27,914 nucleotides of DNA from the IMG/VR virus record IMGVR_UViG_3300045988_111768; one strand, given 5' to 3'. Origin of the DNA: a virus. Below, one piece after another: positions 3,298 to 24,672 of this stretch (the first letter of the stretch is position 1; every line of letters starts with the position of its first letter). Position numbers and translations under genes: made by a program. Under the pieces are notes generated by a model, which was given only the letters and a program-made list of their open reading frames with translations, made no database searches and was not told where the DNA came from.

Positions 3298-5058
3298 ATG
3301 AAACAGACCATCGTATGCGACGCTCACAGCGCAAGCAGCGACGGCAAGATGTTGACATTCCTCGCCAACAGCGGCAAGAAGATGACAAACGGCTATACCG
3401 TAGACCTGCAAACCTTGCAGGCTCCGGTAGACGGCGGACTGCTCAAGCCAGTAACTGAGCTGACCGACTCCGACAAACTCACGCTACCGCTGCTTGTCGA
3501 CCACATGCCGAGCATCACGTATCAGGCCGGTATCATCGAAAAACTTTGGATCGATGATGACGGGCTAATGGCACGCGCAAGACTCAGCAGCAACGAGCCG
3601 GGCGAGGGTATCCGCAAGCTTGCAAGCGAAGGGATGTTAACCAATTCCTTCAGCATCACTATCGACTTCGACGCTGAGCCAGACGAAAACGGGGTAATCC
3701 GTAACGCCGAGCTGGTCGAAATCAGTGTAGTCTACCGTGGCGCAGACAGCAAAGCCGTGTTTCACAGTATCAACAACCGGGGAGGAAAAACAATGAAAAT
3801 CAAGAACAATCTCACCAAGGACGAAGCGCAGGCGCTTATCGATGAGCTGACCGACGCCATCCACGATTTGACCGAGAAAACCGACGACGACATGCCGCCG
3901 GAGGAACCGGCGCAGTCCAACGAGGCCGAAAACAGCAAGGAAGGTGACGCTACCGTGTCCAATGGTCGCACTAACATCATCATCAACAGCGCCGGAGCAG
4001 CACGCCAGTCCCTCGCCAAAACCAATGACCCGCTGGACGAATGGCTGAAGAGCGAAGACGCTACCAAGGCATACGAGCAGGCATTGTGGAAGGCCGACAA
4101 TCAGGGCGTTAACGGCTTCAAGGCCGCTTGGCGCGAAGAGCTTGCACGCCACGCCTACGTCAACAATTCCAGCATCGATGAAGCAAGCGTGACCAAGCTT
4201 GTCCCGACCTCGGTCATTACCGAGATCGAAGACGCGCTCAACAAGGCAAGCGAACTGTGGCCGCTGTACCGCAAGCTGGACGTTGACAGCTTCACGGTCG
4301 GCGCTCAGCTGGCCGGGCTGACCGATGATACCCGCGCCCACGGCTACAAGGTTACCGACTACGGCACCAGCAAGAAGACCCAGAAGTTCAATCTGGTTGA
4401 GCGCAAGATTGCCGCAGATTTCGTTGTCAAGTACGCAGTGCTGAACAAGGGCGATATCAGGCGCACCGACAAGCCGGGCGCGCTGGTGAAGTACCTGCTG
4501 AGCGAGATGCCGAACTACATCTTGCACGCCATCGACCGACAGATTATTCTGGGCGGATACACCGACATGGACTTCTTCCGTTCGGTGCAGACCGACGCGA
4601 AGGACAGTTCGAGTGAGTCCGCCGGTAAGAACTTCGCGCTCTCCGCCACCGAAGGCGACCGAGCCAACCTTGTCCTTGACGTGGTGGGACTCGCTTCCAA
4701 GATTACCGCCACCGGTACCAAGGTGCTGGTAATGAGTCCTGAAACCAAGGTCGACGTTATCACCGCCGCGGACGGTATCGGCCGACCGCTGGTCGGCTAC
4801 GGCAATGATAATCTTGCCGCCTACTTGGGTGTCGATAAGGTCATTACCCCGGACTGGTGGACTGATGCTGATGACGCGAAGACCCGCGCCGTCGTGATCG
4901 TGCCGGAAGCCTATGGCGTGGTCGGTGATACGTCCATCAGCGCGTTCACCAACTTCGCACTCAAGACCAACGAACAGGAATACCTTAGCGAAATCTTCGC
5001 GGGTGGTGCCCTGACCAAGGTCAAGAGTGCAGGCGTGCTCAATCCGAAGACCGCGTGA
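3298..5058 (+). CDS. Prohead protease - scaffold-like (delta) segment - HK97-fold major capsid protein in one 586-aa ORF
   Basis: The N-terminal ~160 aa carry HK97-type serine-protease motifs (LVDHMPS..., NSFSITIDFD, EISVVYRGAD). An acidic helical segment follows. The C-terminal ~300 aa are HK97 capsid-like (FNLVERKIAADFVVKYAVLNKGDI..., ILHAIDRQIILGG). SD AAGGAAGGA precedes the ATG. Confidence 0.85.
   Translation: MKQTIVCDAHSASSDGKMLTFLANSGKKMTNGYTVDLQTLQAPVDGGLLKPVTELTDSDKLTLPLLVDHMPSITYQAGIIEKLWIDDDGLMARARLSSNEPGEGIRKLASEGMLTNSFSITIDFDAEPDENGVIRNAELVEISVVYRGADSKAVFHSINNRGGKTMKIKNNLTKDEAQALIDELTDAIHDLTEKTDDDMPPEEPAQSNEAENSKEGDATVSNGRTNIIINSAGAARQSLAKTNDPLDEWLKSEDATKAYEQALWKADNQGVNGFKAAWREELARHAYVNNSSIDEASVTKLVPTSVITEIEDALNKASELWPLYRKLDVDSFTVGAQLAGLTDDTRAHGYKVTDYGTSKKTQKFNLVERKIAADFVVKYAVLNKGDIRRTDKPGALVKYLLSEMPNYILHAIDRQIILGGYTDMDFFRSVQTDAKDSSSESAGKNFALSATEGDRANLVLDVVGLASKITATGTKVLVMSPETKVDVITAADGIGRPLVGYGNDNLAAYLGVDKVITPDWWTDADDAKTRAVVIVPEAYGVVGDTSISAFTNFALKTNEQEYLSEIFAGGALTKVKSAGVLNPKTA
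3781..3795 (+). promoter_or_regulatory. Candidate internal in-frame translation start (GGAGGA-N6-ATG) inside the protease-capsid ORF
   Basis: ggaggaaaaacaATG has its ATG at 3793, in frame with 3298 (offset 495 nt) and exactly at the end of the protease-like segment. It would give a 421-aa scaffold-plus-capsid product. Confidence 0.4.
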
Positions 5059-16243: not shown

Positions 16244-16351
16244 CTAGTAGTTTACGGCTTCGGTGCGTGTAATGAAGAAGTGTATGCCGGTAGTGCATTC
16301 GACCCAACGGTTAATGTTGAAGCTTTCAACTGTTGCTGTTTTGATTTTCAT
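16244..16351 (-). CDS. Hypothetical micro-protein (35 aa, below the ORF-track cutoff)
   Basis: AAGGAAAGGAACCATAATG start context. Translation is MKIKTATVESFNINRWVECTTGIHFFITRTEAVNY. Stop is TAG at 16244-16246. Confidence 0.45.
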   Translation of the reverse strand: MKIKTATVESFNINRWVECTTGIHFFITRTEAVNY

Positions 16352-16378: not shown

Positions 16379-16762
16379 TCAATCATCCATAACCGTCAGC
16401 CCCTGCATGAGACTGTGGGACTGTCCGAGTTCCAATTGCATCGCCGGAATGATCAGCCGCGTGCAGAGTTTCGTCTCGTTTTGCACGCGCGGGCATCTTC
16501 TGCTGCTTGCCCAGTCTATTAGCTGCGGTTGCGTGCATCCGACTTTGTGCGCTGCTTCGCGCGTGGTCAGGCCAAGCAGCATGATGGCCGTTTTGATTCG
16601 TGCGCCTAGCATGATCTCGTCGCATGCGCCGCCGAGTGTTACCGGCTTCCATGTGCCTGCAAGCGTCTTTACTGCCAGTTGGCCGTACCGGTTTTGCCAT
16701 ATTTCGTGGTCTGCTTCGGCGTAGCTTACGAGTGTCCAGTCTGGTTTGTGTTGGTTTCCCAT
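16379..16762 (-). CDS. HTH DNA-binding protein (XRE/Cro-like HTH in the C-terminal half), candidate early regulator
   Basis: LGARIKTAIMLLGLTTREAAHKVGCTQPQLIDWASSRRCP is a classical XRE-type helix-turn-helix. SD is AGGAAGGA. Confidence 0.75.
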   Translation of the reverse strand: MGNQHKPDWTLVSYAEADHEIWQNRYGQLAVKTLAGTWKPVTLGGACDEIMLGARIKTAIMLLGLTTREAAHKVGCTQPQLIDWASSRRCPRVQNETKLCTRLIIPAMQLELGQSHSLMQGLTVMDD

Positions 16763-16805
16763 GTTTTATCCTTCCTGTGGTGTCGGTATTTGTGTTGTGT
16801 GGTGT

Positions 16806-16829
16806 GGGGCGTGTCTCTTGGCACGCCCC
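16806..16829. promoter_or_regulatory. Perfect palindrome or hairpin H1: GGGGCGTG-N8-CACGCCCC, between P1 and the HTH gene
   Basis: Read directly. No U-tract lies on the sense (minus) side. It is 23/24 identical to the reverse complement of H2 at 21065-21088. Confidence 0.7.
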
Positions 16830-16848: not shown

Positions 16849-17190
16849 CTATGCTTCAATCAGTGTGTAACGTCCGTAGGTTTTGAGGAATCTACCGAGC
16901 TTAAGGCCATAGTGTGCGAGCTTTTCGTTAGCTGCGGCTTCCCATTCCTCGTTAGCTGCGGCTTCCCACACTTCCCCGTGTGCCCTACGTGGCAATCCTT
17001 CGACTCGCTCGATATCATGGTATGTGACATCACTTTCTAAATCGATGTGCCATTCATGGTCAGAGCCGAACCAGAGTCGATTACCGGTGATACCATCCTT
17101 AATAACGATGGCGGTACGTGTGATGTCGCCGTAGATGGCAACTGGCTTGATTAGGACGGCCTTATTGTGGGTGTCAATTGCTGTGAGCAT
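16849..17190 (-). CDS. Small protein P1 (113 aa), paralog of 21098-21424
   Basis: It aligns by eye along its whole length with P2 (M-TAID..., PVA(I/V)Y, DG(I/N)TGN, ERVEG, EEWEAAAN, YGLKLG, (T/E)L(I/V)EA). It contains an in-frame 24-bp tandem duplication. Confidence 0.8.
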   Translation of the reverse strand: MLTAIDTHNKAVLIKPVAIYGDITRTAIVIKDGITGNRLWFGSDHEWHIDLESDVTYHDIERVEGLPRRAHGEVWEAAANEEWEAAANEKLAHYGLKLGRFLKTYGRYTLIEA

Positions 17191-17256
17191 TGTTTGTCCT
17201 TTCCTTGGTTTGGTTGATAACTACGATATTACTCTACCTGTGCCAACGACACGCAG
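17191..17256 (-). promoter_or_regulatory. Promoter-leader cassette A
   Basis: In sense orientation: tGCGTGTCGttggcacaggtagagTAATATcgtagttatcaaccaaaccAAGGAAAGGAcaaacaATG. The -10-like hexamer is at 17226-17231 and GCGTGT lies 17 bp upstream (17249-17254). Confidence 0.6.
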
Positions 17257-17263
17257 AGGAAAC

Positions 17264-17291
17264 AAAAAAGAGGGGCGATTTCTCGCCCCTC
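17264..17291 (-). terminator. Rho-independent terminator (minus strand)
   Basis: In sense orientation: GAGGGGCGA-gaaa-TCGCCCCTC followed by TTTTTTG. It lies 10 nt after the stop of 17301-17648. Confidence 0.85.
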
Positions 17292-17300
17292 CCTCAACGC

Positions 17301-17648
17301 TTACAACGTGCCTAACGTCGTGCTGCAACCGGCCTTATGCCGGTACATGGCACACACGCTGATCGACACCAGCAGGCCACGCAACCCAGTCTTACGCGCC
17401 AACAGCAGCCACGTGATACCGCCGAAGATTGGAGACGCGCACCATCCGCAGTCTGTGAGCTGCCGCAGGCTCTTCGCGGCCTTTGCCTGCTTCGTGTTGC
17501 CGCGTTCTTCCGCGGCCTGTGTAGCTTGCGCCACGGCTTCGCGCCACACATCGCGCATGTCTGCAAGCCTGTAGCCGAATCCGGGCGTGAGCTGCGCACA
17601 GGTCAGGAAATACCCGGCTGCGAGTCCTGCCACGATTGCCTTTTCCAT
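17301..17648 (-). CDS. Small membrane protein (115 aa), unknown function
   Basis: Hydrophobic segments are AIVAGLAAGYFLTCAQL and PIFGGITWLLLA. SD is GGAGGAA. Confidence 0.6.
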   Translation of the reverse strand: MEKAIVAGLAAGYFLTCAQLTPGFGYRLADMRDVWREAVAQATQAAEERGNTKQAKAAKSLRQLTDCGWCASPIFGGITWLLLARKTGLRGLLVSISVCAMYRHKAGCSTTLGTL

Positions 17649-17651
17649 GAT

Positions 17652-17912
17652 TCATTCCTCCATAGCGTCGAAGAGTTCGGCCACATTGTGACACGCCTTG
17701 CCATCGTAAATGAGTGCTGGGAAGCTGCTTGTAATCTCAAGCACATCATCCCACCTAGTGTTACCCGGCTGCACGACTATCAGCCTTGTGCCACTGTCTG
17801 CGAGTGCGTGGCGCGCCCTGTGCAGCATGTCACTTGCCTGCGGGTCGCATTGCACGCAGCCGTCGAAGGCGAGGTATACGACACCTTTTGCCAATCCTTG
17901 CATGCTTACCAC
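17652..17912 (-). CDS. Glutaredoxin/NrdH-like thioredoxin-fold protein
   Basis: CVQC redox motif after a beta-strand (VVYLAFDGCVQC), and a cis-Pro region (SSFPALIYDGK). The start is either GTG at 17912 (overlapping the exonuclease stop) or ATG at 17903. Confidence 0.6.
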   Translation of the reverse strand: MVSMQGLAKGVVYLAFDGCVQCDPQASDMLHRARHALADSGTRLIVVQPGNTRWDDVLEITSSFPALIYDGKACHNVAELFDAMEE

Positions 17913-18796
17913 TCTTCAGTCTCACCAGCGAAGGTCTGCACGGAAAACTTGTTAGATAGCATGTCTGTGTAGGCCAGTGTGTTTCGTCCGCTTTCCAGCT
18001 GCTTTTCCACTTTGTCCTGCACGTCTTCGCGGCGTACAGGCATGACCACGTGAGATAGATTGCAGTACACGCGATCGTCCAGCATCGTGAAATAGACAGT
18101 CTCAAGACTGTCATTCACAGCGAAATACTGAAGCACCTGAGCCTTGTACGTATCAGGCACGAAGTCGAAGGCCGTCAAATCAGCACGCAGCACATCCGGG
18201 AAGAGAGCAAGCAGCATGTCATGGAAAGCATCGGTGGTGCCCACTGTCTTGTCGCCCGAATGCAGGTCATGCCATAGACCATACGGCACTACGGCCATGA
18301 GATGATTCCTAGTGCCGAGCGACTTCGCTTCAAAAGCAAAAGTCGGTTGCTCGGCCTTCTCGTGCGCGTCGGGGCTGATTGCGATTCGCTCATCATCATC
18401 ACGAACCCACATGCCCGTATCAAATTCCACTGTGGCCGTGTCAATGCCGAGCTTTTCGCACGCCTGCCTGATGTTCTCGTTTTCCAACCTGTGACCGCGT
18501 GCCATGGGCGGTTCGCCGTCTGCGGGGTCTGCCCACATCTCGGCAAGGAAGCTCCAGAATTCGGCGGGGACTTTCAAACGCTGATTGTCTACTCGCGCCT
18601 GTTCGGCCTTATGCAGGTATTCGATTCGTTTCGCGTCGGTCTTGGCCTTCTCCGCCATGGCTTCAAGCTTCGCCACGTCCTTCTGTGCGTAGTGTTCCAT
18701 GCTCAACGCTCCGGCCTTCGTGCCGGTGATTTTGCCGATGCGCTGTCGCAGCCATGCGTCGGTGTCCTGTGATTGTGAAATGTCGATGATGTGCAT
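17906..18796 (-). CDS. YqaJ/lambda-exonuclease-like recombination exonuclease
   Basis: N-terminal WLRQRIGKITGTKAGAL and catalytic-region pattern ISPDAHEK...FEAKS are typical of YqaJ-family viral recombinases. Confidence 0.75.
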   Translation of the reverse strand: MHIIDISQSQDTDAWLRQRIGKITGTKAGALSMEHYAQKDVAKLEAMAEKAKTDAKRIEYLHKAEQARVDNQRLKVPAEFWSFLAEMWADPADGEPPMARGHRLENENIRQACEKLGIDTATVEFDTGMWVRDDDERIAISPDAHEKAEQPTFAFEAKSLGTRNHLMAVVPYGLWHDLHSGDKTVGTTDAFHDMLLALFPDVLRADLTAFDFVPDTYKAQVLQYFAVNDSLETVYFTMLDDRVYCNLSHVVMPVRREDVQDKVEKQLESGRNTLAYTDMLSNKFSVQTFAGETEEW

Positions 18797-18822
18797 GATG
18801 GTTTCCTTTCATTGGGTGAGGT

Positions 18823-18845
18823 GGGGCACCCGTGGTGGGTGCCCC
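18823..18845. promoter_or_regulatory. Perfect GC hairpin H3 (GGGGCACCC-gtggt-GGGTGCCCC) between P3 and the exonuclease gene
   Basis: 9-bp perfect stem read directly. No U-tract lies on the sense side. It holds the same position relative to its upstream small gene as H1 and H2. Confidence 0.65.
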
Positions 18846-18855
18846 GTGGTTTTGG

Positions 18856-19146
18856 TTAGAAGTTCTTGAGGTCGTAGTAGAGGGCTGCAACGTCGCCGTC
18901 GCTCATGTCGCGGGCACCACCTTCTTCCATCACTTCTTCTACGCCGTCCTCATCGTAGAAGTATTCAGACCACAGCAGGCAGGATGGTTCGTCTTCGTCG
19001 TAGGCGGCATAGAAGATTCGCCCGTCTTCGAATTCGATTCGTAGCGTGTCGCCTGCATAGATTCCATCTTCGACGCTCGTGCTGCGGATGTCGTTGGTGG
19101 TGTTGTGGAGGGTGCTGCCGATGGTCTGGAGGGTTGGGGTGGTCAT
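18856..19146 (-). CDS. Small, strongly acidic protein P3 (96 aa)
   Basis: ATG at 19146 is fixed by cassette B (the ORF-track start at 19200 reads through the promoter). I count 23 Asp+Glu against 5 Lys+Arg (YDEDEPSCLLWSEYFYDEDGVEEVMEEGG). Confidence 0.7.
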   Translation of the reverse strand: MTTPTLQTIGSTLHNTTNDIRSTSVEDGIYAGDTLRIEFEDGRIFYAAYDEDEPSCLLWSEYFYDEDGVEEVMEEGGARDMSDGDVAALYYDLKNF

Positions 19147-19211
19147 TTCTGTTTCCTTTCCTTGTTGGTTGATAACTCTGATATTACTCGCCATCTCCAT
19201 GCGACACGCCG
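19147..19211 (-). promoter_or_regulatory. Promoter-leader cassette B
   Basis: In sense orientation: CGGCGTGTCGcatggagatggcgagTAATATcagagttatcaaccaacAAGGAAAGGAaacagaaATG. The -10-like hexamer is at 19181-19186 and GCGTGT lies 17 bp upstream (19204-19209). Confidence 0.6.
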
Positions 19212-19486
19212 TGAACCGGAAAATCCACTGGTTTTTTTTCGTCGGCAGGCTGGGACTGCATCACACGACTATTCCTGCCACGCTCCGGCCTGTCATGCTT
19301 GGCATAGCCGCCCTGTTCGATGGCAAGCACTGCGATACTTGCGATGGTCGCAAAGCAGCAGCACACGGCAAGCACAAGGCACTCGGCAGACCAGTCATAG
19401 GCACCCGAGAACGCAAGGCCAAGAGTGAAGCTGGCACCGACAAGACCGAAGATAAAGGCGCTGAAATCAAGCGCGAACTGCTTCAT
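19184..19486 (-). CDS. Small membrane protein (about 100 aa), unknown function
   Basis: ATG at 19486 lies 2 nt after the erf stop. Hydrophobic runs are FSAFIFGLVGASFTLGLAF and LVLAVCCCFATIASIAVLAI. Its 3' end overlaps cassette B. Confidence 0.55.
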   Translation of the reverse strand: MKQFALDFSAFIFGLVGASFTLGLAFSGAYDWSAECLVLAVCCCFATIASIAVLAIEQGGYAKHDRPERGRNSRVMQSQPADEKKPVDFPVHGVSHGDGE

Positions 19487-19487
19487 G

Positions 19488-20069
19488 TCACTCACCCGCC
19501 TTAACGATCTGCGCACGAATAGCCATGATATCGGCCTTGGTCAAATCTTGCGGACGGGTCACAGGATGCCCGAAGTTGGTGGACTGGACTAGCTGGCGTA
19601 TATCCACCCCCGCGGCTTGCGCGTCGCTGCTTACGGCCTGCCAGTCTTTTGCGCTGGCTTTCGCCTGTCCCGAGTGTGATTGCGTCGCACCGTAGCCGTC
19701 ATCATCCTTTTCCGGGAAGATGCCGAGCGCAGCGTACAGGCTATAGCGTCGCGCATAGGTTACGGCGCTGCCTACGGCCTGCGGGTCGCTAAGCACGAAG
19801 AACGGATAGGAGCCGACTGTGAGCGTATCCGCTTCATCGAAGATAACCGTGCGCACGATGCCAAGCGGCTTATCTTCACCCGACACGTATTCGACGGCTT
19901 GATAGAAGCCCATGCCATGCTTGGCGAAGACGGGTTTCACGCCCTTCAGCAGGGTGTCAAGGCCGAGGTACTTGTATTGGCGTTTGCCTGCGTCGGCTCG
20001 CAAATCGGTGACGAATGTCGGGATGTCCTGTAGGAGCTTGGCGTACTTGGTGTTGAGGTTGCTGGTCAT
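19488..20069 (-). CDS. erf: Erf-family single-strand annealing protein
   Basis: KRQYKYLGLDTLLKGVKPVFAKHGMGFYQ and AVGSAVTYARRYSLYAALGI are hallmark Erf motifs. Confidence 0.8.
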   Translation of the reverse strand: MTSNLNTKYAKLLQDIPTFVTDLRADAGKRQYKYLGLDTLLKGVKPVFAKHGMGFYQAVEYVSGEDKPLGIVRTVIFDEADTLTVGSYPFFVLSDPQAVGSAVTYARRYSLYAALGIFPEKDDDGYGATQSHSGQAKASAKDWQAVSSDAQAAGVDIRQLVQSTNFGHPVTRPQDLTKADIMAIRAQIVKAGE

Positions 20070-20146
20070 TTTGGTTTCCTTTCCTTGGTTTGGTTGATAA
20101 CTACGATATTACTCTTGGTTGTCAGTAGCGTCAAAACGACACGCCG
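20070..20146 (-). promoter_or_regulatory. Promoter-leader cassette C
   Basis: In sense orientation: CGGCGTGTCGtTTGACGctactgacaaccaagagTAATATcgtagttatcaaccaaaccAAGGAAAGGAaaccaaaATG. The -10-like hexamer is at 20106-20111 and TTGACG lies 17 bp upstream (20129-20134). The motif is at 20137-20146, inside the upstream gene's 3' end. Confidence 0.65.
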
Positions 20147-20690
20147 AATAATCCATAAAACGCGCCGAGACAATCTCCTTGTCACGCCACAAGCCAAGCG
20201 CACACTTGATTACATGACCCGTGATATCCACAGGCACAGTCGCATACACATCGACGCCACGGCAACCAAGACGCCGCAAGAAATCGCAGCAGGGACAGTC
20301 GCCCGTCCACCTGTACTCGCGGCCATCATCCAAAGTCACAGCCCAATCCCCGCCGTCTCGCACGATAACACACGTTTGCGAGTCCTTGAGCGCATGGACG
20401 GCGAGAGCACTGGCGATCCGTCGCGCTCGCGGACTGCCGTTGGTCGGCAGGTCTGGCATTGGAAGGCGCACGTCATCCACGGTCAGGTCGCACGGCTCCC
20501 CGGCATCGAAGAAAGTCGCCACCATGTCGTGCCAACCGCCGTCCGGTGCAACCGCGTCTATGCGCACGTCGTACATGATGATGCCGAAGTTGCCGCGATA
20601 CCTGCGTACCTCGCACGCTTCGACATACCATCCATATTGGCCGAGATAGTCGGCAATCCTGTCCCCGAGCTTCTTCACAACCTTGTTCAC
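20109..20690 (-). CDS. Hypothetical protein (193 aa) with a C-terminal Cys/His cluster
   Basis: GTG start overlaps the upstream stop (GTGA). GDCPCCDFLRRLGCRG...TGHVIKC suggests a zinc-binding, loosely SWIM-like module. No confident family was recognised. Confidence 0.6.
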   Translation of the reverse strand: MNKVVKKLGDRIADYLGQYGWYVEACEVRRYRGNFGIIMYDVRIDAVAPDGGWHDMVATFFDAGEPCDLTVDDVRLPMPDLPTNGSPRARRIASALAVHALKDSQTCVIVRDGGDWAVTLDDGREYRWTGDCPCCDFLRRLGCRGVDVYATVPVDITGHVIKCALGLWRDKEIVSARFMDYSACRFDATDNQE

Positions 20691-21019
20691 AATGCTTCTC
20701 CGATTTCCTTGGTGGTGATGGTCCCCGTCCAGATTTCCGGTGCCTTGTCCATGATTGCCTTGGAGTCATCAATAAGACAGTCGATAACATAGTTTTCGGC
20801 CAAGAGTCGCAGCCCATAATCTTGCTGCACGTGCTTTTCAAGCACGATGTGCCCGGCCTTCTCGTACCATTCCGCAAGCTCCCAGAGCATTCGGGAGATT
20901 TGCATTTCGTCTGTCCATGCTTCCTTGCGCCATTGCTTGCCGTCTAGGTAGAGCGTTGCGTCTCGTAGCCATCTGTGGTCGTCGCGGCTGGTGATGATGC
21001 AGACCCTGTGCTGTTTCAT
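20687..21019 (-). CDS. Hypothetical protein (110 aa)
   Basis: SD is AAGGAAAGAGAA. It is translationally coupled to 20109-20690. No motif was recognised. Confidence 0.6.
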   Translation of the reverse strand: MKQHRVCIITSRDDHRWLRDATLYLDGKQWRKEAWTDEMQISRMLWELAEWYEKAGHIVLEKHVQQDYGLRLLAENYVIDCLIDDSKAIMDKAPEIWTGTITTKEIGEAL

Positions 21020-21064
21020 TATCGTTCTCTTTCCTTGTTTGGTTTAATGTTTTTCGGTGTGTGT

Positions 21065-21088
21065 GGGGCGTGCCGAGAGACACGCCCC
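21065..21088. promoter_or_regulatory. Perfect palindrome or hairpin H2: GGGGCGTG-N8-CACGCCCC, just downstream of P2
   Basis: Read directly. It has the same stems as H1, and its loop (CCGAGAGA) is the reverse complement of the H1 loop (TCTCTTGG) apart from one base. Confidence 0.7.
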
Positions 21089-21097
21089 TAGTCTGTG

Positions 21098-21424
21098 TCA
21101 GGCTTCTACCAGCTCGTACCTGTCCCCGGCCTTCTCATCGAATGCGCCGAGCTTAAGCCCGTAGTAGTCAAGCAGCTTGTTTGCGGCTGCTTCCCATTCC
21201 TCTTCGTCAGCGCCGTACACGCCTTCGACTCGCTCAGCGGAATGTGCCGCGTCGCCGTCATATGCCGAATCGGTATACCATTCGCGGGTAATGTCGCTGT
21301 ATGCGAGGGGATTCCCGGTGTTGCCATCAACGATTAGCAGCGTGTCGTATGCGTTGCTCGCGTAGACGGCGACGGGCTGAACGTCGATAACTTCGTTGGT
21401 GTTTAAATCGATTGCGGTAGTCAT
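21098..21424 (-). CDS. Small acidic protein P2 (108 aa), paralog of P1
   Basis: See P1. I count 23 Asp+Glu against 6 Lys+Arg. It has a single copy of the EEWEAAAN segment. Confidence 0.8.
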   Translation of the reverse strand: MTTAIDLNTNEVIDVQPVAVYASNAYDTLLIVDGNTGNPLAYSDITREWYTDSAYDGDAAHSAERVEGVYGADEEEWEAAANKLLDYYGLKLGAFDEKAGDRYELVEA

Positions 21425-21491
21425 TTTGGTTTCCTTCCTGTTGTCTGGTTGATAACTCTGATATTACTGCTGATTGCGACACGACACGCCG
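21425..21491 (-). promoter_or_regulatory. Promoter-leader cassette D
   Basis: In sense orientation: CGGCGTGTCGTGTCGcaatcagcagTAATATcagagttatcaaccagacaacAGGAAGGAaaccaaaATG. The -10-like hexamer is at 21461-21466 and the outer GCGTGT lies 17 bp upstream (21484-21489). Confidence 0.6.
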
Positions 21492-21510
21492 ATAACCAGG
21501 AAATCCCATA

Positions 21511-22590
21511 TCACGAGCCAGAATTAGACACAAGCTCTATACCCTCACCAATCCACCGCATCACAGGAACGGCCATGGAATTACCCAGGGCTTTGTAACG
21601 CTTGGAATCTGGCGCGTGCTCGGCACCACGCCACGGCACATCCGTATACCCGTCAGGGAAGCCTTGCAGTCTTTCGCACTCGATAGCCGTAAGCCGTCGA
21701 ACGGCAAACCCTGGCGAGTTAACGAAGCACGCGCTTTTACCGTCATGCGCTGTCAACGTGGGCGACAAATCATGGCCGACACTAAGCGTGCTTGAGTCAG
21801 TCGAGCAATACGGTGGATTGATAAAGCAAGCTCCCCGCGCATCCATCGTGGTCAAAGTCGGAGCTATGTCATGGCCGACGCTCATATGTACGCCGGTATC
21901 CGACGCGCAATAAACGCGTTGCTCTAGTCTTTGGAGTCCTGGAGTGCTGTCAATGCTGCAAGATGCCGATCTAGAGCTTGCATTAGCTCGCTTGGCAAAG
22001 GCTTTGCGCGCTTCCGCGCTCGATTGATAATCCCAACGCAGGCTCTCTCGCTCAAATAGTACCGGTGCGGCACGTCGCCAGTCTCTAGTATTGACAACAA
22101 GGAACACACGTCTGCGTCGCTGTGCCACTCCGTAGAATTGAGCGTCAAGCACCCGCCATGCCGCCCCGCCATCAGGCCAGAGTTCGGCCACGCCTGCGAG
22201 CAGTGAGCCGAAAGCGCGCCCTCCATCTGCGGATAATACGCCGGGAACGTTTTCCCATACAATCCATTCTGGATTAATTTCATGGCAAGCTCGGAGATAT
22301 TCGAGCATGAGCCGGCCGCGCGGGTCATCCAACGCCTTCCTGAGTCCTGCGATGCTGAATGCCTGGCAGGGGCTTCCTCCGACCACAATGTCAACTGCTC
22401 CACGGTATTTGCTCCAATCTACTTTTGTCATATCTCCAAGGTCAGGCACTCCTTGGTAGTGGTGTGCGAGTACCGATTTTGGGAATGGGTCTATTTCAGA
22501 GTAGGCGACTGCTTCCCAGCCTAGTGGTTTCCAAGCCACGGTTGCTGCTTCTATCCCGCTGAAAAGGCTTATGTATTTTAGCGGTTTCAT
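21511..22590 (-). CDS. DNA (cytosine-5) methyltransferase with a tandemly duplicated target-recognition module
   Basis: Motifs occur in canonical order: LFSGIEA (I), GGSPCQAFS (IV), ENVPG (VI), QRRRRVFLV (VIII), RRLTAIECERLQGFP (IX), GNSMAVPV (X). ATG at 22590 is fixed by cassette E (the ORF-track start at 22617 is upstream of the SD). Confidence 0.9.
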   Translation of the reverse strand: MKPLKYISLFSGIEAATVAWKPLGWEAVAYSEIDPFPKSVLAHHYQGVPDLGDMTKVDWSKYRGAVDIVVGGSPCQAFSIAGLRKALDDPRGRLMLEYLRACHEINPEWIVWENVPGVLSADGGRAFGSLLAGVAELWPDGGAAWRVLDAQFYGVAQRRRRVFLVVNTRDWRRAAPVLFERESLRWDYQSSAEARKAFAKRANASSRSASCSIDSTPGLQRLEQRVYCASDTGVHMSVGHDIAPTLTTMDARGACFINPPYCSTDSSTLSVGHDLSPTLTAHDGKSACFVNSPGFAVRRLTAIECERLQGFPDGYTDVPWRGAEHAPDSKRYKALGNSMAVPVMRWIGEGIELVSNSGS

Positions 22591-22652
22591 TGCGTGTTCC
22601 TTCCTTTTTGGTGACAATATTGATATTAGTCGCTCTCACAGGCGACACGCCG
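22591..22652 (-). promoter_or_regulatory. Promoter-leader cassette E (diverged copy)
   Basis: In sense orientation: CGGCGTGTCGcctgtgagagcgacTAATATcaatattgtcaccaaaAAGGAAGGAacacgcaATG. The -10-like hexamer is at 22623-22628 and GCGTGT lies 16 bp upstream (22645-22650). Confidence 0.55.
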
Positions 22653-22660
22653 AGGATACG

Positions 22661-22691
22661 AAAAAAGGCGGCACGCCTAGAACATGCCGCC
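22661..22691 (-). terminator. Rho-independent terminator (minus strand)
   Basis: In sense orientation: GGCGGCA-tgttctaggcg-TGCCGCC followed by TTTTTTCG. Confidence 0.7.
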
Positions 22692-22997: not shown

Positions 22998-23840
22998 TCA
23001 CAGGCCAAGCAATGACTTCGCGCTCATAATATTGCGCTCCATCTTGCGAGTGCGCCTATCCGCTCCAGTCACCTCGATAGGAACACACATCTCCTTAAGA
23101 CGGGAGTAGACGCGCTGGCGTCGAATGTCTGCGGGGTCGGCAAGCTCGCCAATGGTGAGGTTGGTGGTGACGACTATTGGCAGGCCACTACGATACCGTG
23201 CGTCGATGATGGTCATGACCTGTTCCCATACATACTCAGTGTTCCGTTCAACGGCCATGTCATCGATTACGAGCAGGTCGAAACGGCTCAGATTGTCGAT
23301 GTATTTCTGTCGCCCGTCGAAGCTCTCTTGCAGCCTGTTGATGATGCGGGTGAAATTGGTCATCATGCACGGTGTGCCATTGTCTATCAGGGCGTTGGCT
23401 ATGCACGCTGCCGCGAAGCTCTTACCGCAGCCTACGTTACCGTAGAGCATCAGCCCGGTGCCGTTTGAGCGCATGGCATCGAAATTAGCCACGTACTTGC
23501 GTGCGATGCCCATAAGATTGGTGTTGCCGCCATCATCATTAGCAAACGTCCATTTGCGCATCTCGGCGTCTGGGAAGCCGGTACGTCGCATACCGTCCAA
23601 GTATTGCATTCGGTCGCGCTTGCGTTTTTCCTCGGCTTCGATGCGATTATGCTCTACGACGCATTTGCACGCGCATGACAACACCTTTATCTTGCCAAGA
23701 AACGGCTGGCGTACCTGCTTTTGCGTGTGGCATTTGCCGCACATAAGCAGCCCGTCCGCATTACGGTAGTCGCCTTCCTGTTCGGCGTATTGTTGTGCGG
23801 CACGTGCCGCGATACTGCCAAAAACGTTGTTCGATTCCAT
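22998..23840 (-). CDS. DnaC/IstB-like AAA+ helicase loader with an N-terminal Cys-rich zinc-finger region
   Basis: Walker A is GNVGCGKSFAAAC and Walker B is FDLLVIDDM. The N-terminal cluster is CGKCHTQKQ...LSCACKC. Confidence 0.85.
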   Translation of the reverse strand: MESNNVFGSIAARAAQQYAEQEGDYRNADGLLMCGKCHTQKQVRQPFLGKIKVLSCACKCVVEHNRIEAEEKRKRDRMQYLDGMRRTGFPDAEMRKWTFANDDGGNTNLMGIARKYVANFDAMRSNGTGLMLYGNVGCGKSFAAACIANALIDNGTPCMMTNFTRIINRLQESFDGRQKYIDNLSRFDLLVIDDMAVERNTEYVWEQVMTIIDARYRSGLPIVVTTNLTIGELADPADIRRQRVYSRLKEMCVPIEVTGADRRTRKMERNIMSAKSLLGL

Positions 23841-23856: not shown

Positions 23857-24672
23857 TCATGCCTTGAATTGGCTCATGAGTTCCATTGCCCTGTCACGTT
23901 CGGCCTGTGTTTCGCGTCGGTCGGCGGGGAGGGTAACGGCCTGCGCCTGCTGCTTATAGCCTTGGCTTTGGTAGGTTTTGATGGGATAAAACGCGTTCCA
24001 GCCACGACGGATTACCTCGGAAAGATAATCATCTACACTCATGTTGCTTTGCGCTGCATAGGCATCTAGCTTGTCGATATTGCGCTTGATCGCGTTGTCT
24101 GTCATTGCCGCTCGTTTCGCCTTACGGTTTTGCAACCACTCGCCTAAAAGCTCTTTAGTGGTGGCATTGGACGTGTAGGCATCAATAATCGCGTCGAAGC
24201 TATGACGCTTTCTTTCTTTCTTTTTTACAGAGGTGTTTACACCAGAGGTTACACATGTGTTTATATCTGGTATAGGTTCGTCATTTTTGACACTTTGATT
24301 TGTCACATCTGACATTTCCATTTGTCGTTTTTGACAAATGGATGTGTCAATACCGAACAATGCTTCTGACTTTTCCGTAAGTGTGTACCATTGCGTTCTG
24401 TCGTAAGCCGATTTATTGTAATTGCCTACGATAATCAACCCTTCTTCCCTAAGCTTGTCCAAGGCCGTGCGAATACCGCGTGCCTTGATATACGGAAACA
24501 GCTCCTCGAACGCCTTCATACTATTGAACGTCCAGTAATGCCCATCGTGGTAGTTTTCCTCGTTTGCCTTGTTGTGCTCGCACCAATGCGCGATGTTCTC
24601 CAAGATGATAGCGGCGTTAACGCCGACCATTTGAGCAACTTCAACATCGAAGACATGTTTTTTCATAATCAA
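23857..24672 (-). CDS. Replication initiation or replisome organiser protein (N-terminal winged-helix-like domain plus DnaD-like C-terminal domain)
   Basis: The C-terminal segment LGEWLQNRKAKRAAMTDNAIKRNIDKLD...SEVIRRGWNAFYP resembles the DnaD/DnaB_2 domain. It lies directly upstream of the loader gene. A TTG start at 24672 sits 6 nt after AAGGA; the alternative is ATG at 24666. Confidence 0.75.
   Translation of the reverse strand: MIMKKHVFDVEVAQMVGVNAAIILENIAHWCEHNKANEENYHDGHYWTFNSMKAFEELFPYIKARGIRTALDKLREEGLIIVGNYNKSAYDRTQWYTLTEKSEALFGIDTSICQKRQMEMSDVTNQSVKNDEPIPDINTCVTSGVNTSVKKKERKRHSFDAIIDAYTSNATTKELLGEWLQNRKAKRAAMTDNAIKRNIDKLDAYAAQSNMSVDDYLSEVIRRGWNAFYPIKTYQSQGYKQQAQAVTLPADRRETQAERDRAMELMSQFKA

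Follow-up and report, generated by a model that had tools for sequence, protein, structure and literature searches.

The viral DNA stretch IMGVR_UViG_3300045988_111768, analyzed over its full length of 27,914 nucleotides (nt) and called the window here, carries in its early arm three small genes, P1, P2 and P3, each set in the same kind of unit: a near-identical promoter cassette, a promoter-proximal small open reading frame (ORF) and a perfect GC-rich hairpin without a U-tract shortly after the stop codon. This design, proposed in an earlier reading made from the letters alone (the sequence-only reading), is real, recurs within the window and moves as a module between related phages. In our best explanation, P1/P2 and P3 form two unrelated families of early proteins that are accessory and non-essential in small siphoviruses of Bifidobacterium. 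A role in counter-defense or host take-over is the function we favor, although only tentatively and with somewhat less than even confidence; a Gam-like P3 is counted under this role only if it targets a host nuclease.

The units are defined most sharply by their upstream regions. A 23-nt core, AGTAATATCNNAGTTATCAACCA, occurs exactly four times in the genome, always on the minus strand, against zero copies expected: upstream of P1 (17211–17233), P3 (19166–19188) and P2 (21446–21468), and again upstream of the gene for an ERF-family protein (20091–20113). Each of the three small genes is thus the first behind its own cassette, as had been claimed. Alignment of the upstream regions reveals a full cassette comprising a box, a 13-nt spacer, AGTAATATC (with TAATAT as the −10 element), AGTTATCAACCA and the Shine-Dalgarno (SD) sequence GGAAAGGA. 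Within the box, GCGTGTCG is invariant in all five cassettes, and four of the five have the form GGCGTGTCG. The ERF cassette keeps the core unchanged and has its box 10 nt further upstream, giving a 23-nt spacer that gains a TTGACG −35 element placed 17 nt before TAATAT. The fifth cassette precedes an orphan C5 cytosine DNA methyltransferase, which the sequence-only reading had assigned to the same promoter class. That assignment holds in part. The methylase cassette shares the GGCGTGTCG box, TAATATC and the 13-nt spacing; it is truncated, lacks AGTTATCAACCA and differs in its downstream half.

The promoter-box octamer GGCGTGTC is present in 11 copies in the window, against 1.5 expected (positions 5057, 13829, 16808, 17690, 19203, 20138, 21079, 21483, 22644, 24834 and 24882). 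It lies in four cassettes (P3, ERF, P2 and methylase), the P1 cassette having a one-mismatch variant, and it also occurs inside two of the hairpins, H1 (plus strand) and H2 (minus strand). Two of the copies form an inverted pair (24834 plus, 24882 minus) upstream of the replication initiator gene and could serve for regulator binding or as a recombination joint.

The second constant feature of the units is the hairpin that follows each P gene. The perfect 8–9 bp GC stems described from the letters alone could be confirmed after all three genes, with gaps of 19, 10 and 9 nt and no T-run. In a whole-genome scan for perfect stems of at least 8 bp with at least 6 GC pairs, H1–H3 make up three of the five distinct perfect GC-rich hairpins in 27.9 kb, the others being the terminator stem at 17270–17291 and one in the structural arm; with two nested entries counted, the scan gave seven, where shuffled sequences gave 1.4 on average. 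Folding of the intergenic regions yields z-scores of −3.3 for H1, −3.4 for H3 and −4.6 for H2. The 10-nt 3′ tails (ACACCACACA, ACACACACCG and ACCUCACCCA) are A/C-rich, with no T in H1 and H2 and one T in H3, and so lack the U-tract of a canonical (L-shaped) terminator, unlike the phage's terminators at 17266–17295 and 22667–22691, which carry T6–7. The next gene begins 26–45 nt past the hairpin, with an SD sequence and no promoter in between. The downstream genes therefore depend on read-through, which fits differential expression along each unit.

H1 and H2 share a single 24-nt palindrome: their stems are identical and their flanks have the same orientation. Their 8-nt loops are reverse complements (CCAAGAGA against UCUCUCGG, reverse complement of CCGAGAGA; 7/8 match), and in the closest relative (L005) each site, P1 and P2, has the loop variant that the other has in the window, a pattern that looks like flip-flop inversion of a hairpin loop. 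The 40–45 nt that separate H1 and H2 from the start codons after them (16763–16805 and 21020–21064) are C/A-rich and G-poor, for example CACACCACACAACACAAAUACCGACACCACA; this rut-like composition could couple the hairpins to Rho.

Hairpins without a U-tract at up to 50 nt after stop codons are the prevalent 3′-end signature in Mycobacterium and have also been found by Term-seq in Streptomyces (PMC12288462, PMC8269248). H1–H3 resemble these I-shaped hairpins of Actinobacteria in being perfect GC stem-loops 9–19 nt after the stop codon, within the 50-nt limit and without a U-tract, in a phage whose host would be actinobacterial (see below). Unlike I-shaped terminators, they sit inside operons, and the phage keeps canonical U-tract terminators for the ends of its units. 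Since the genes downstream of them within these operons are promoterless, H1–H3 are not efficient terminators. The module as we propose it thus combines a strong, near-identical cassette (GGCGTGTCG box, 13 nt, TAATAT and a conserved leader with SD), a promoter-proximal small ORF and a U-tract-less GC stem-loop. The stem-loop would act in RNA as an I-shaped 3′-end element, that is, as a leaky terminator and/or a block to 3′ exonucleases, such that the first cistron would accumulate above the promoterless cistrons downstream: the helix-turn-helix (HTH) gene HTH127 after P1, the exonuclease gene after P3, and orf110 and orf193 after P2. The early operon of T7 is similarly arranged, with an acidic first gene (0.3, encoding Ocr) followed by an intercistronic stem-loop, an RNase III hairpin that shapes mRNA 3′ ends and stability. 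Unlike in T7, the stems here are 8–10 bp and each unit has its own promoter. RNase III sites were set aside as an explanation of H1–H3, stems of 8–10 bp being too short for substrates of this enzyme. Terminators of antisense transcripts were likewise rejected, since on the plus strand a T-rich tail, and a weak one, follows H3 but neither H1 nor H2.

The same units recur in related loci, which were drawn from IMG/VR, JGI metagenomes and ENA/Logan contigs and are designated by L-numbers. In the closest relative (L005/L043; 91–99% protein identity), the whole methylase unit is absent and P2 stands directly behind the terminator and cassette. Compared with this relative (L005 9900–10000), the methylase unit (window 21491–22660) is an insertion with a GGCGTGTCG box at both ends. 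P3 is found ahead of the exonuclease gene in the window, L044 and L047, directly after a DnaC-like gene and ahead of a P2-like gene in L020, L045 and L216, and, in L217, ahead of a 117-aa gene. P3 keeps the H3 stem behind it regardless of the next gene, with ACCAC, GCCAA or GACAA as its loop. In L047, P3 is instead followed by a hairpin of the H1/H2 type, GUGGCGUG-N8-CACGCCAC, with a compensatory change from G:C to U:A (GGGG/CCCC to GUGG/CCAC). Other genes at equivalent positions precede perfect GC hairpins with unrelated stems (GCCCCGCC/GGCGGGGC and GGGCGGCGU/ACGCCGCCC), again with no U-tract. Judged across these loci, the hairpin belongs to the upstream gene whatever follows. Five more distant phages (L019, L023, L036, L037 and L040) have a canonical terminator after the P-family gene, and a transcript end at this point is therefore an accepted design.

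The cassette, too, is shared by a restricted set of genes. Behind 35 non-identical cassettes that keep the box, the first gene belongs to the P1/P2 family in 10 cases, the P3 family in seven, an acidic 83/84-aa family in six, a 91-aa family in four, ERF in three and a pentapeptide-repeat + DUF5758 protein in two, with three others. Twenty of the 35 cassette-driven ORFs are no longer than 120 aa and have a net charge of −0.09 per residue or lower, among instances that are not phylogenetically independent. One relative (L216) has an island that reads P3, H3, P2-like gene, cassette, 82-aa gene, HTH127 and pentapeptide/DUF5758 gene. The pentapeptide-repeat + DUF5758 protein is intact in relatives (L020 4031–4738; L216 3529–4467) and lies directly behind a cassette in L020 and L185; a 35-aa ORF with a DUF5758 match downstream of HTH127 in the window looks like a remnant of it. 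Exchange of modules between phages would take place where cassette and hairpin provide conserved flanks, a step that these comparisons bear out in part. To judge from the closest relative, in which P1 is frameshifted and the methylase is missing, the units are accessory.

The hairpins may alternatively act on DNA, either as palindromic sites for a dimeric regulator that also reads the GGCGTGTC box or, together with the cassette, as joints at which the ERF/exonuclease module swaps genes; we regard this as rather unlikely, yet several observations speak for it and thus tell against a function in RNA. The GGCGTGTC octamer is in marked excess and lies inside H1, H2 and four cassettes, H1 and H2 share one 24-nt palindrome with an inverted loop, so that their orientation independence suits a DNA site, and the methylase insertion is boxed on both sides. 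The stems are conserved with almost no covariation (one compensatory pair in L047 and one uncompensated mismatch in L217). Also against a function in RNA, most distant relatives and the temperate group lack a strong hairpin after the P-family gene, and whether I-shaped hairpins terminate transcription or merely mark processed ends is disputed (PMC12288462, PMC8269248). In opposition to a DNA-level role, H3 and the hairpins of relatives have unrelated stems (GGGGCACCC, GCCCCGCC, GGGCGGCGU) with the same geometry and the same position after the stop codon, and structure therefore appears to be favored over sequence. The compensatory change in L047 points in the same direction, as do loops that vary among relatives on stems that remain paired. 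Loop flips are a known mutational by-product of hairpins, as in plastid genomes, and can be explained here in this way.

P1 and P2 are paralogs along their whole length, as the sequence-only reading had recognized: end-to-end BLASTP (residues 1–113 and 1–108) gives 47/117 identities (40%, E 2e-15), and both proteins match the family profile. The three minus-strand ORFs are as first described, and the counts of acidic (D+E) and basic (K+R) residues are exact (18/13 for P1, 23/6 for P2 and 23/5 for P3). P2 and P3 have the same isoelectric point (pI) of 4.05 and, with net charges per residue of −0.157 and −0.188, are the two most acidic products of the 35 genes in the genome (mean −0.022, standard deviation 0.058). 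This acidity is a property of both families, with median net charges of −15 (P1/P2) and −16 (P3) and divergent members mostly between −12 and −24; P1, at −5, is the exception. The cluster-level relatives of P2 (n = 113) and P3 (n = 86) are all unnamed or “hypothetical” and come from gut metagenomes and Caudoviricetes contigs. When 1.84 billion representatives were searched exhaustively with a profile, only 82 P1/P2-family clusters were recovered, and the family is therefore narrow. The AlphaFold (AF2) model of P2 (predicted local distance difference test [pLDDT] 93, predicted template modeling score [pTM] 0.83) is mostly β, with nine strands and one long helix. A scan of 40 divergent P1/P2-family members against Pfam and PHROGs gave nothing at curated thresholds; the best match of the family search was a sub-threshold one to AfAlkA TBP-like (E 0.003). 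The P1 gene also repeats the 20-nt sequence TGGGAAGCCGCAGCTAACGA exactly and in direct orientation, at a period of 27 nt (16910–16965, minus strand), in a tandem duplication that doubles WEAAAN(E).

P3 represents a separate, uncharacterized family. Its start at 19146 is backed by homologs and by the position of the −10 element. Kinship to P1/P2 had been suggested from a C-terminal YY.LK motif, and does not hold: homology was ruled out by BLASTP (E 3.6), by profile–profile comparison (hhalign probability 0.1%) and by a differing predicted topology, and the motif amounts to an 8-nt DNA identity only. The AF2 model of P3 (pLDDT 91, pTM 0.82) comprises a helix, a five-stranded sheet and a second helix. 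One protein (P0194, on a 942-nt Logan contig) is a chimera of a P3-family N terminus and a P2-family C terminus, joined at ALHY/GFKLG, and P3 and P2 have the 8-nt string CTACTACG in common at this joint. The chimera probably arose either by deletion where a P3 gene adjoins a P2-like gene or as an artefact of assembly.

Downstream of P1 lies HTH127, and the sequence-only reading had likened this pair to the anti-CRISPR operons in which a small effector gene (acr) precedes the gene for an HTH autorepressor (aca). The likeness is borne out in part. P1 is directly upstream, in the order P1 cassette, P1, H1, 43 nt and HTH127 with no promoter or terminator in between, so that the two genes form one unit as in acr-aca operons. 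HTH127 is also a conserved anchor behind changing genes: its mean column identity over six homologs is 83%, and ten HTH127-bearing contexts (window, L005/L043/L219, L044, L045, L047, L216, L217, L220 and L221) hold at least five upstream gene sets. The genes before it are P1 in the window, a basic 114–117-aa gene (L044, L217, L045), an acidic 83/84-aa gene (L045, L047), a 91–100-aa gene (L220, L221) and, in L216, an 82-aa gene that follows P3 and the P2-like gene. In L221, most of the 83-aa gene has given way to the 91-aa gene; its last codons (VEQFARTW*) and its 3′ structured element are left, a case of replacement between conserved flanks. As in acr-aca loci, then, a promoter that we infer to be strong drives small, fast-evolving, dispensable ORFs of unknown fold, and a better-conserved downstream HTH gene stays while the upstream genes change between genomes. 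What is less secure is the HTH call itself, made on sub-threshold matches (Pfam HTH_3 E 0.0065, PHROG regulators E 0.004, 434 repressor E 0.085), and the adjacency to P1, which is not kept in L034/L035, where P1-like genes have no following HTH gene and H1 is still present after them. Among the PDB matches of HTH127 there was no solved Aca, only weak Xre/434-repressor similarity. Also unlike acr-aca loci, the arm uses its cassette promoter four or five times over, once ahead of ERF, no Aca-type operator inverted repeat is evident in the cassette alignment, and there is no Acr homology.

The 83/84-aa and 91-aa genes of these contexts are followed by a conserved element, GCGGC(G/A)G(A/G)GGCAACCGC(G/A)CAACCC(U/C)CC (L045 2763–2825, L047 5755–5814, L220 373–438 and L221 ~3914–4000). 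It forms two interleaved stems (GCGG/CCGC, and GGAGG/CCUCC or GGGGG/CCCCC) in a pseudoknot-like arrangement with an apparent compensatory change.

The counter-defense or take-over reading draws on the dispensability and mobility of the units, their narrow host-clade distribution, the conserved acidity and promoter-proximal position of the proteins, the neighboring orphan methylase, the pentapeptide-repeat protein of relatives and the HTH anchor; for the effectors themselves the argument is one of guilt by association. The strongly acidic P2 and P3 would most likely act stoichiometrically on host proteins, possibly as nucleic-acid mimics, and HTH127 would serve as the conserved regulator of the island, an analogue of Aca. 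P2 and P3 resemble Ocr and ArdA in small size, very low pI and promoter-proximal early position. The pentapeptide repeat is a known DNA-mimic fold class, and relatives carry such a protein, as in MfpA/Qnr, in an equivalent cassette slot, with the orphan methylase as a neighboring module. The searches place the P families in no known non-defense function (Pfam, PHROGs, NCBIfam, PADLOC, PDB and Foldseek). The architecture is a variant of known early accessory or anti-defense loci and of actinobacterial I-shaped hairpins, and not a new category; its proteins are two uncharacterized families whose models have no fold match.

Other results weigh against this reading of the proteins. None of P1, P2 and P3 matched Pfam, PHROGs, NCBIfam, PADLOC or PDB sequence profiles at curated thresholds, and no similarity to a known Acr, Ard, Ocr or other anti-defense protein was found in sequence or structure. 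Foldseek gave nothing significant for P2 in PDB (best E 0.33) or BFVD (best E 0.12) and nothing significant for P3 in PDB (best E 0.05, the N-domain of KhtT). The suggestion of DNA mimics such as Ocr and ArdA is not upheld by fold, as no mimic is among the Foldseek PDB matches of P2 and P3 and the PDB profiles are negative; conserved strong negative charge, with P1 excepted, is the part of the likeness that is present. P2 and P3 have β-rich predicted folds with no match to Ocr, ArdA, Gam or anything else in PDB, and P1 is not acidic. Indeed, P1 falls short on both acidity and conservation: its net charge per residue (−0.044) is ordinary within the genome, and in the closest relative (L005), which has a single copy of the internal repeat, it is frameshifted at that repeat to an 88-aa product (P0298). 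Other P1-subfamily cluster representatives are likewise cut short or frameshifted (P0235, P0258). Finally, the P1/P2-family gene is not behind a cassette in L042 (a Bifidobacterium prophage), L218 and most IMG/VR relatives (L006–L013, L021–L033), and this temperate placement, outside an early lytic context, suggests a different or additional role for P1/P2.

A bolder version of the counter-defense reading would make the arm an integron-like, recombination-driven, plug-and-play island. Units of cassette, ORF and 3′ hairpin would be swapped at GGCGTGTC box/cassette and hairpin joints by the phage ERF/exonuclease and co-regulated by HTH127, and the effectors would include two new acidic folds, acidic mini-proteins, a pentapeptide-repeat mimic and the orphan methylase, with P2 and P3 founding new anti-defense families against Bifidobacterium restriction-modification or CRISPR. 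In this full form we consider it unlikely. Bifidobacteria have unusually many defense systems, and to our knowledge the escape of gut bifidophages from host immunity is known almost only through database look-ups. If P2 and P3 are counter-defense effectors, they would bring two new protein folds to that role, and the HTH anchor could be used to mine further bifidophage effectors by guilt by association. The promoter, ORF and hairpin unit would be a ready-made expression part for Bifidobacterium genetics and a clean test case for the action of U-tract-less hairpins in Actinobacteria. If these are ordinary accessory genes, what would be left is a well-documented case of small siphoviruses shuffling their genes as modules.

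The temperate relatives bring in a further explanation, in which the P1/P2 family is half of a two-protein system and the acidic small protein neutralizes or chaperones a larger partner, namely the phrog_15934 protein or, in the window, orf110/orf193. Such a pair could work in superinfection exclusion or in mobility linked to the recombinase, or have an abortive or toxin-antitoxin-like function. In the temperate module (L042 10001–12175; L218 6001–8049), the P1/P2-family gene is joined by a gene for a 286–289-aa phrog_15934 protein of unknown function, which starts 2 nt after the P-family stop codon, and then by one for a ~288-aa tyrosine recombinase; the order holds in L042, L218 and most IMG/VR relatives, and in L042 the module adjoins the prophage integrase. 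An acidic small protein beside a larger one is a common charge pattern of antitoxins and toxins, and the pairing here matches it. Against this, the 286-aa partner has no homolog in the window (tblastn) and no PADLOC match, the P-family gene of cassette-type phages stands alone or beside P3 with varying neighbors, and a hairpin separates P2 from orf110/orf193. We consider such a system quite improbable.

We hold it equally doubtful that P3, and perhaps P2, are recombination or replication accessories, such as a Gam-like inhibitor of host RecBCD/AddAB/AdnAB that would shield linear phage DNA, or a modulator of ERF/YqaJ. P3 is strongly acidic, as DNA-end mimics are, and in the window, L044 and L047 its gene comes after ERF and directly before the YqaJ-type exonuclease gene. 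The gam gene of lambda occupies a comparable position relative to bet/exo. In L020, L045, L216 and L217, however, P3 is several kb from YqaJ, placed after the DnaC-like gene and before a P2-like or 117-aa gene, and P3 has no structural match to Gam or to a nuclease inhibitor.

RNA anti-CRISPRs (Racrs), solitary CRISPR-repeat mimics that titrate Cas proteins, are described in phage genomes (PMC10651486); that H1–H3 are such elements is highly improbable and was rejected at the sequence level, since, although the H3 core GCACCC...GGGUGC is similar to the stem of the type I-C repeat of B. longum, GTCGCACCCC(ACT/TCAC)GGGGTGCGTGGATTGAAAT, full-length ungapped comparison of 16 published Bifidobacterium repeats with the whole window put no hairpin among the best matches, the 3′ handle is absent, Rfam gave no CRISPR-DR match, and a scan with the H1/H2 pattern found, among the matches listed, single generic sites in high-GC genomes and no arrays.

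The setting of the units is a small siphovirus. The window matches ENA/Logan contigs of 24.9–41.8 kb, including a 27,828-nt scaffold, and genes for terminase, portal, a Lactococcus-phage-type capsid protein, SPP1-Dit, tape measure and lysis are present on the matching contigs, with the early arm running leftward on the minus strand in window coordinates. From this gene content and arrangement, the window is identified as a complete small siphovirus genome of ~27.9 kb. In the phage collection, its portal matched only the portals of two Bifidobacterium asteroides phages, at 51% identity, and no near-identical DNA to the window was found. A prophage on a 450-kb metagenomic contig (L042) carries P1/P2-family genes as well; a GcpE protein flanking it is identical to proteins that bear the name Bifidobacterium, and the GcpE cluster includes B. 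longum among its names. The portal identity and the prophage relatives therefore point to Bifidobacterium, an actinobacterium, as the probable host; a scan of GTDB genomes found no P1/P2 relatives, and the host evidence comes from the metagenomic Bifidobacterium contig instead. The features of the early arm are given in Table 1.

Table 1. Early arm of the window, from high to low coordinate
Feature	Position	Strand	Remarks
Replication initiator	23857–24672		
DnaC/IstB-like loader	22998–23840		
Canonical terminator	22667–22691	minus	upstream of methylase cassette
Methylase truncated cassette	box 22644–22651, TAATAT 22623–22628	minus	
Orphan C5 cytosine DNA methyltransferase	21511–22590	minus	own truncated cassette
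P2 promoter cassette	21446–21491	minus	GGCGTGTCG box 21483–21490, 13-nt spacer, AGTAATATC, AGTTATCAACCA
P2	21098–21424	minus	108 aa, net charge −17
H2	21065–21088	minus	GGGGCGUG-UCUCUCGG-CACGCCCC; extendable to 10 bp via one G.U pair; no U-tract
orf110	20687–21019	minus	P2-unit downstream cistron, function unknown, no own promoter
orf193	20109–20690	minus	P2-unit downstream cistron, function unknown, no own promoter
ERF cassette (fourth)	20091–20146	minus	core unchanged; box 10 nt further upstream
ERF-family single-strand annealing protein	19488–20069	minus	
orf100			
P3 promoter cassette	19166–19211	minus	box 19203–19210
P3	18856–19146	minus	96 aa, net charge −18; uncharacterized family
H3	18823–18845	minus	GGGGCACCC-ACCAC-GGGUGCCCC; no U-tract
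YqaJ/RecE-like exonuclease	17906–18796	minus	cistron downstream of P3
orf83			
orf115			
Canonical intrinsic terminator (stem + T-run)	17266–17295	minus	closes P3-exonuclease unit ahead of P1 cassette
P1 promoter cassette	17211–17255	minus	box variant TGCGTGTCG
P1	16849–17190	minus	113 aa, net charge −5
H1	16806–16829	minus	GGGGCGUG-CCAAGAGA-CACGCCCC; H2 stem, loop flipped
HTH127	16379–16762	minus	weak Xre-type HTH protein
35-aa ORF	16244–16351	minus	DUF5758 match; putative remnant
orf78			

Two further observations concern the wider genome. Inside the replication initiator gene, at 24310–24349, lies a 17-nt inverted repeat (TGACATTTCCATTTGTC/GACAAATGGATGTGTCA, 6-nt spacer) that is a possible origin or iteron-like site. 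On one ENA contig (k141_102722, 41.8 kb; L002), bacterial-looking genes (DctP, Ogt, low-molecular-weight phosphatase, aldehyde dehydrogenase and transporters) are joined to a cut-off methylase gene, which is followed by the phage early arm; the junction may be a chimeric assembly via a methylase homolog or may be real, in a phage without an integrase.

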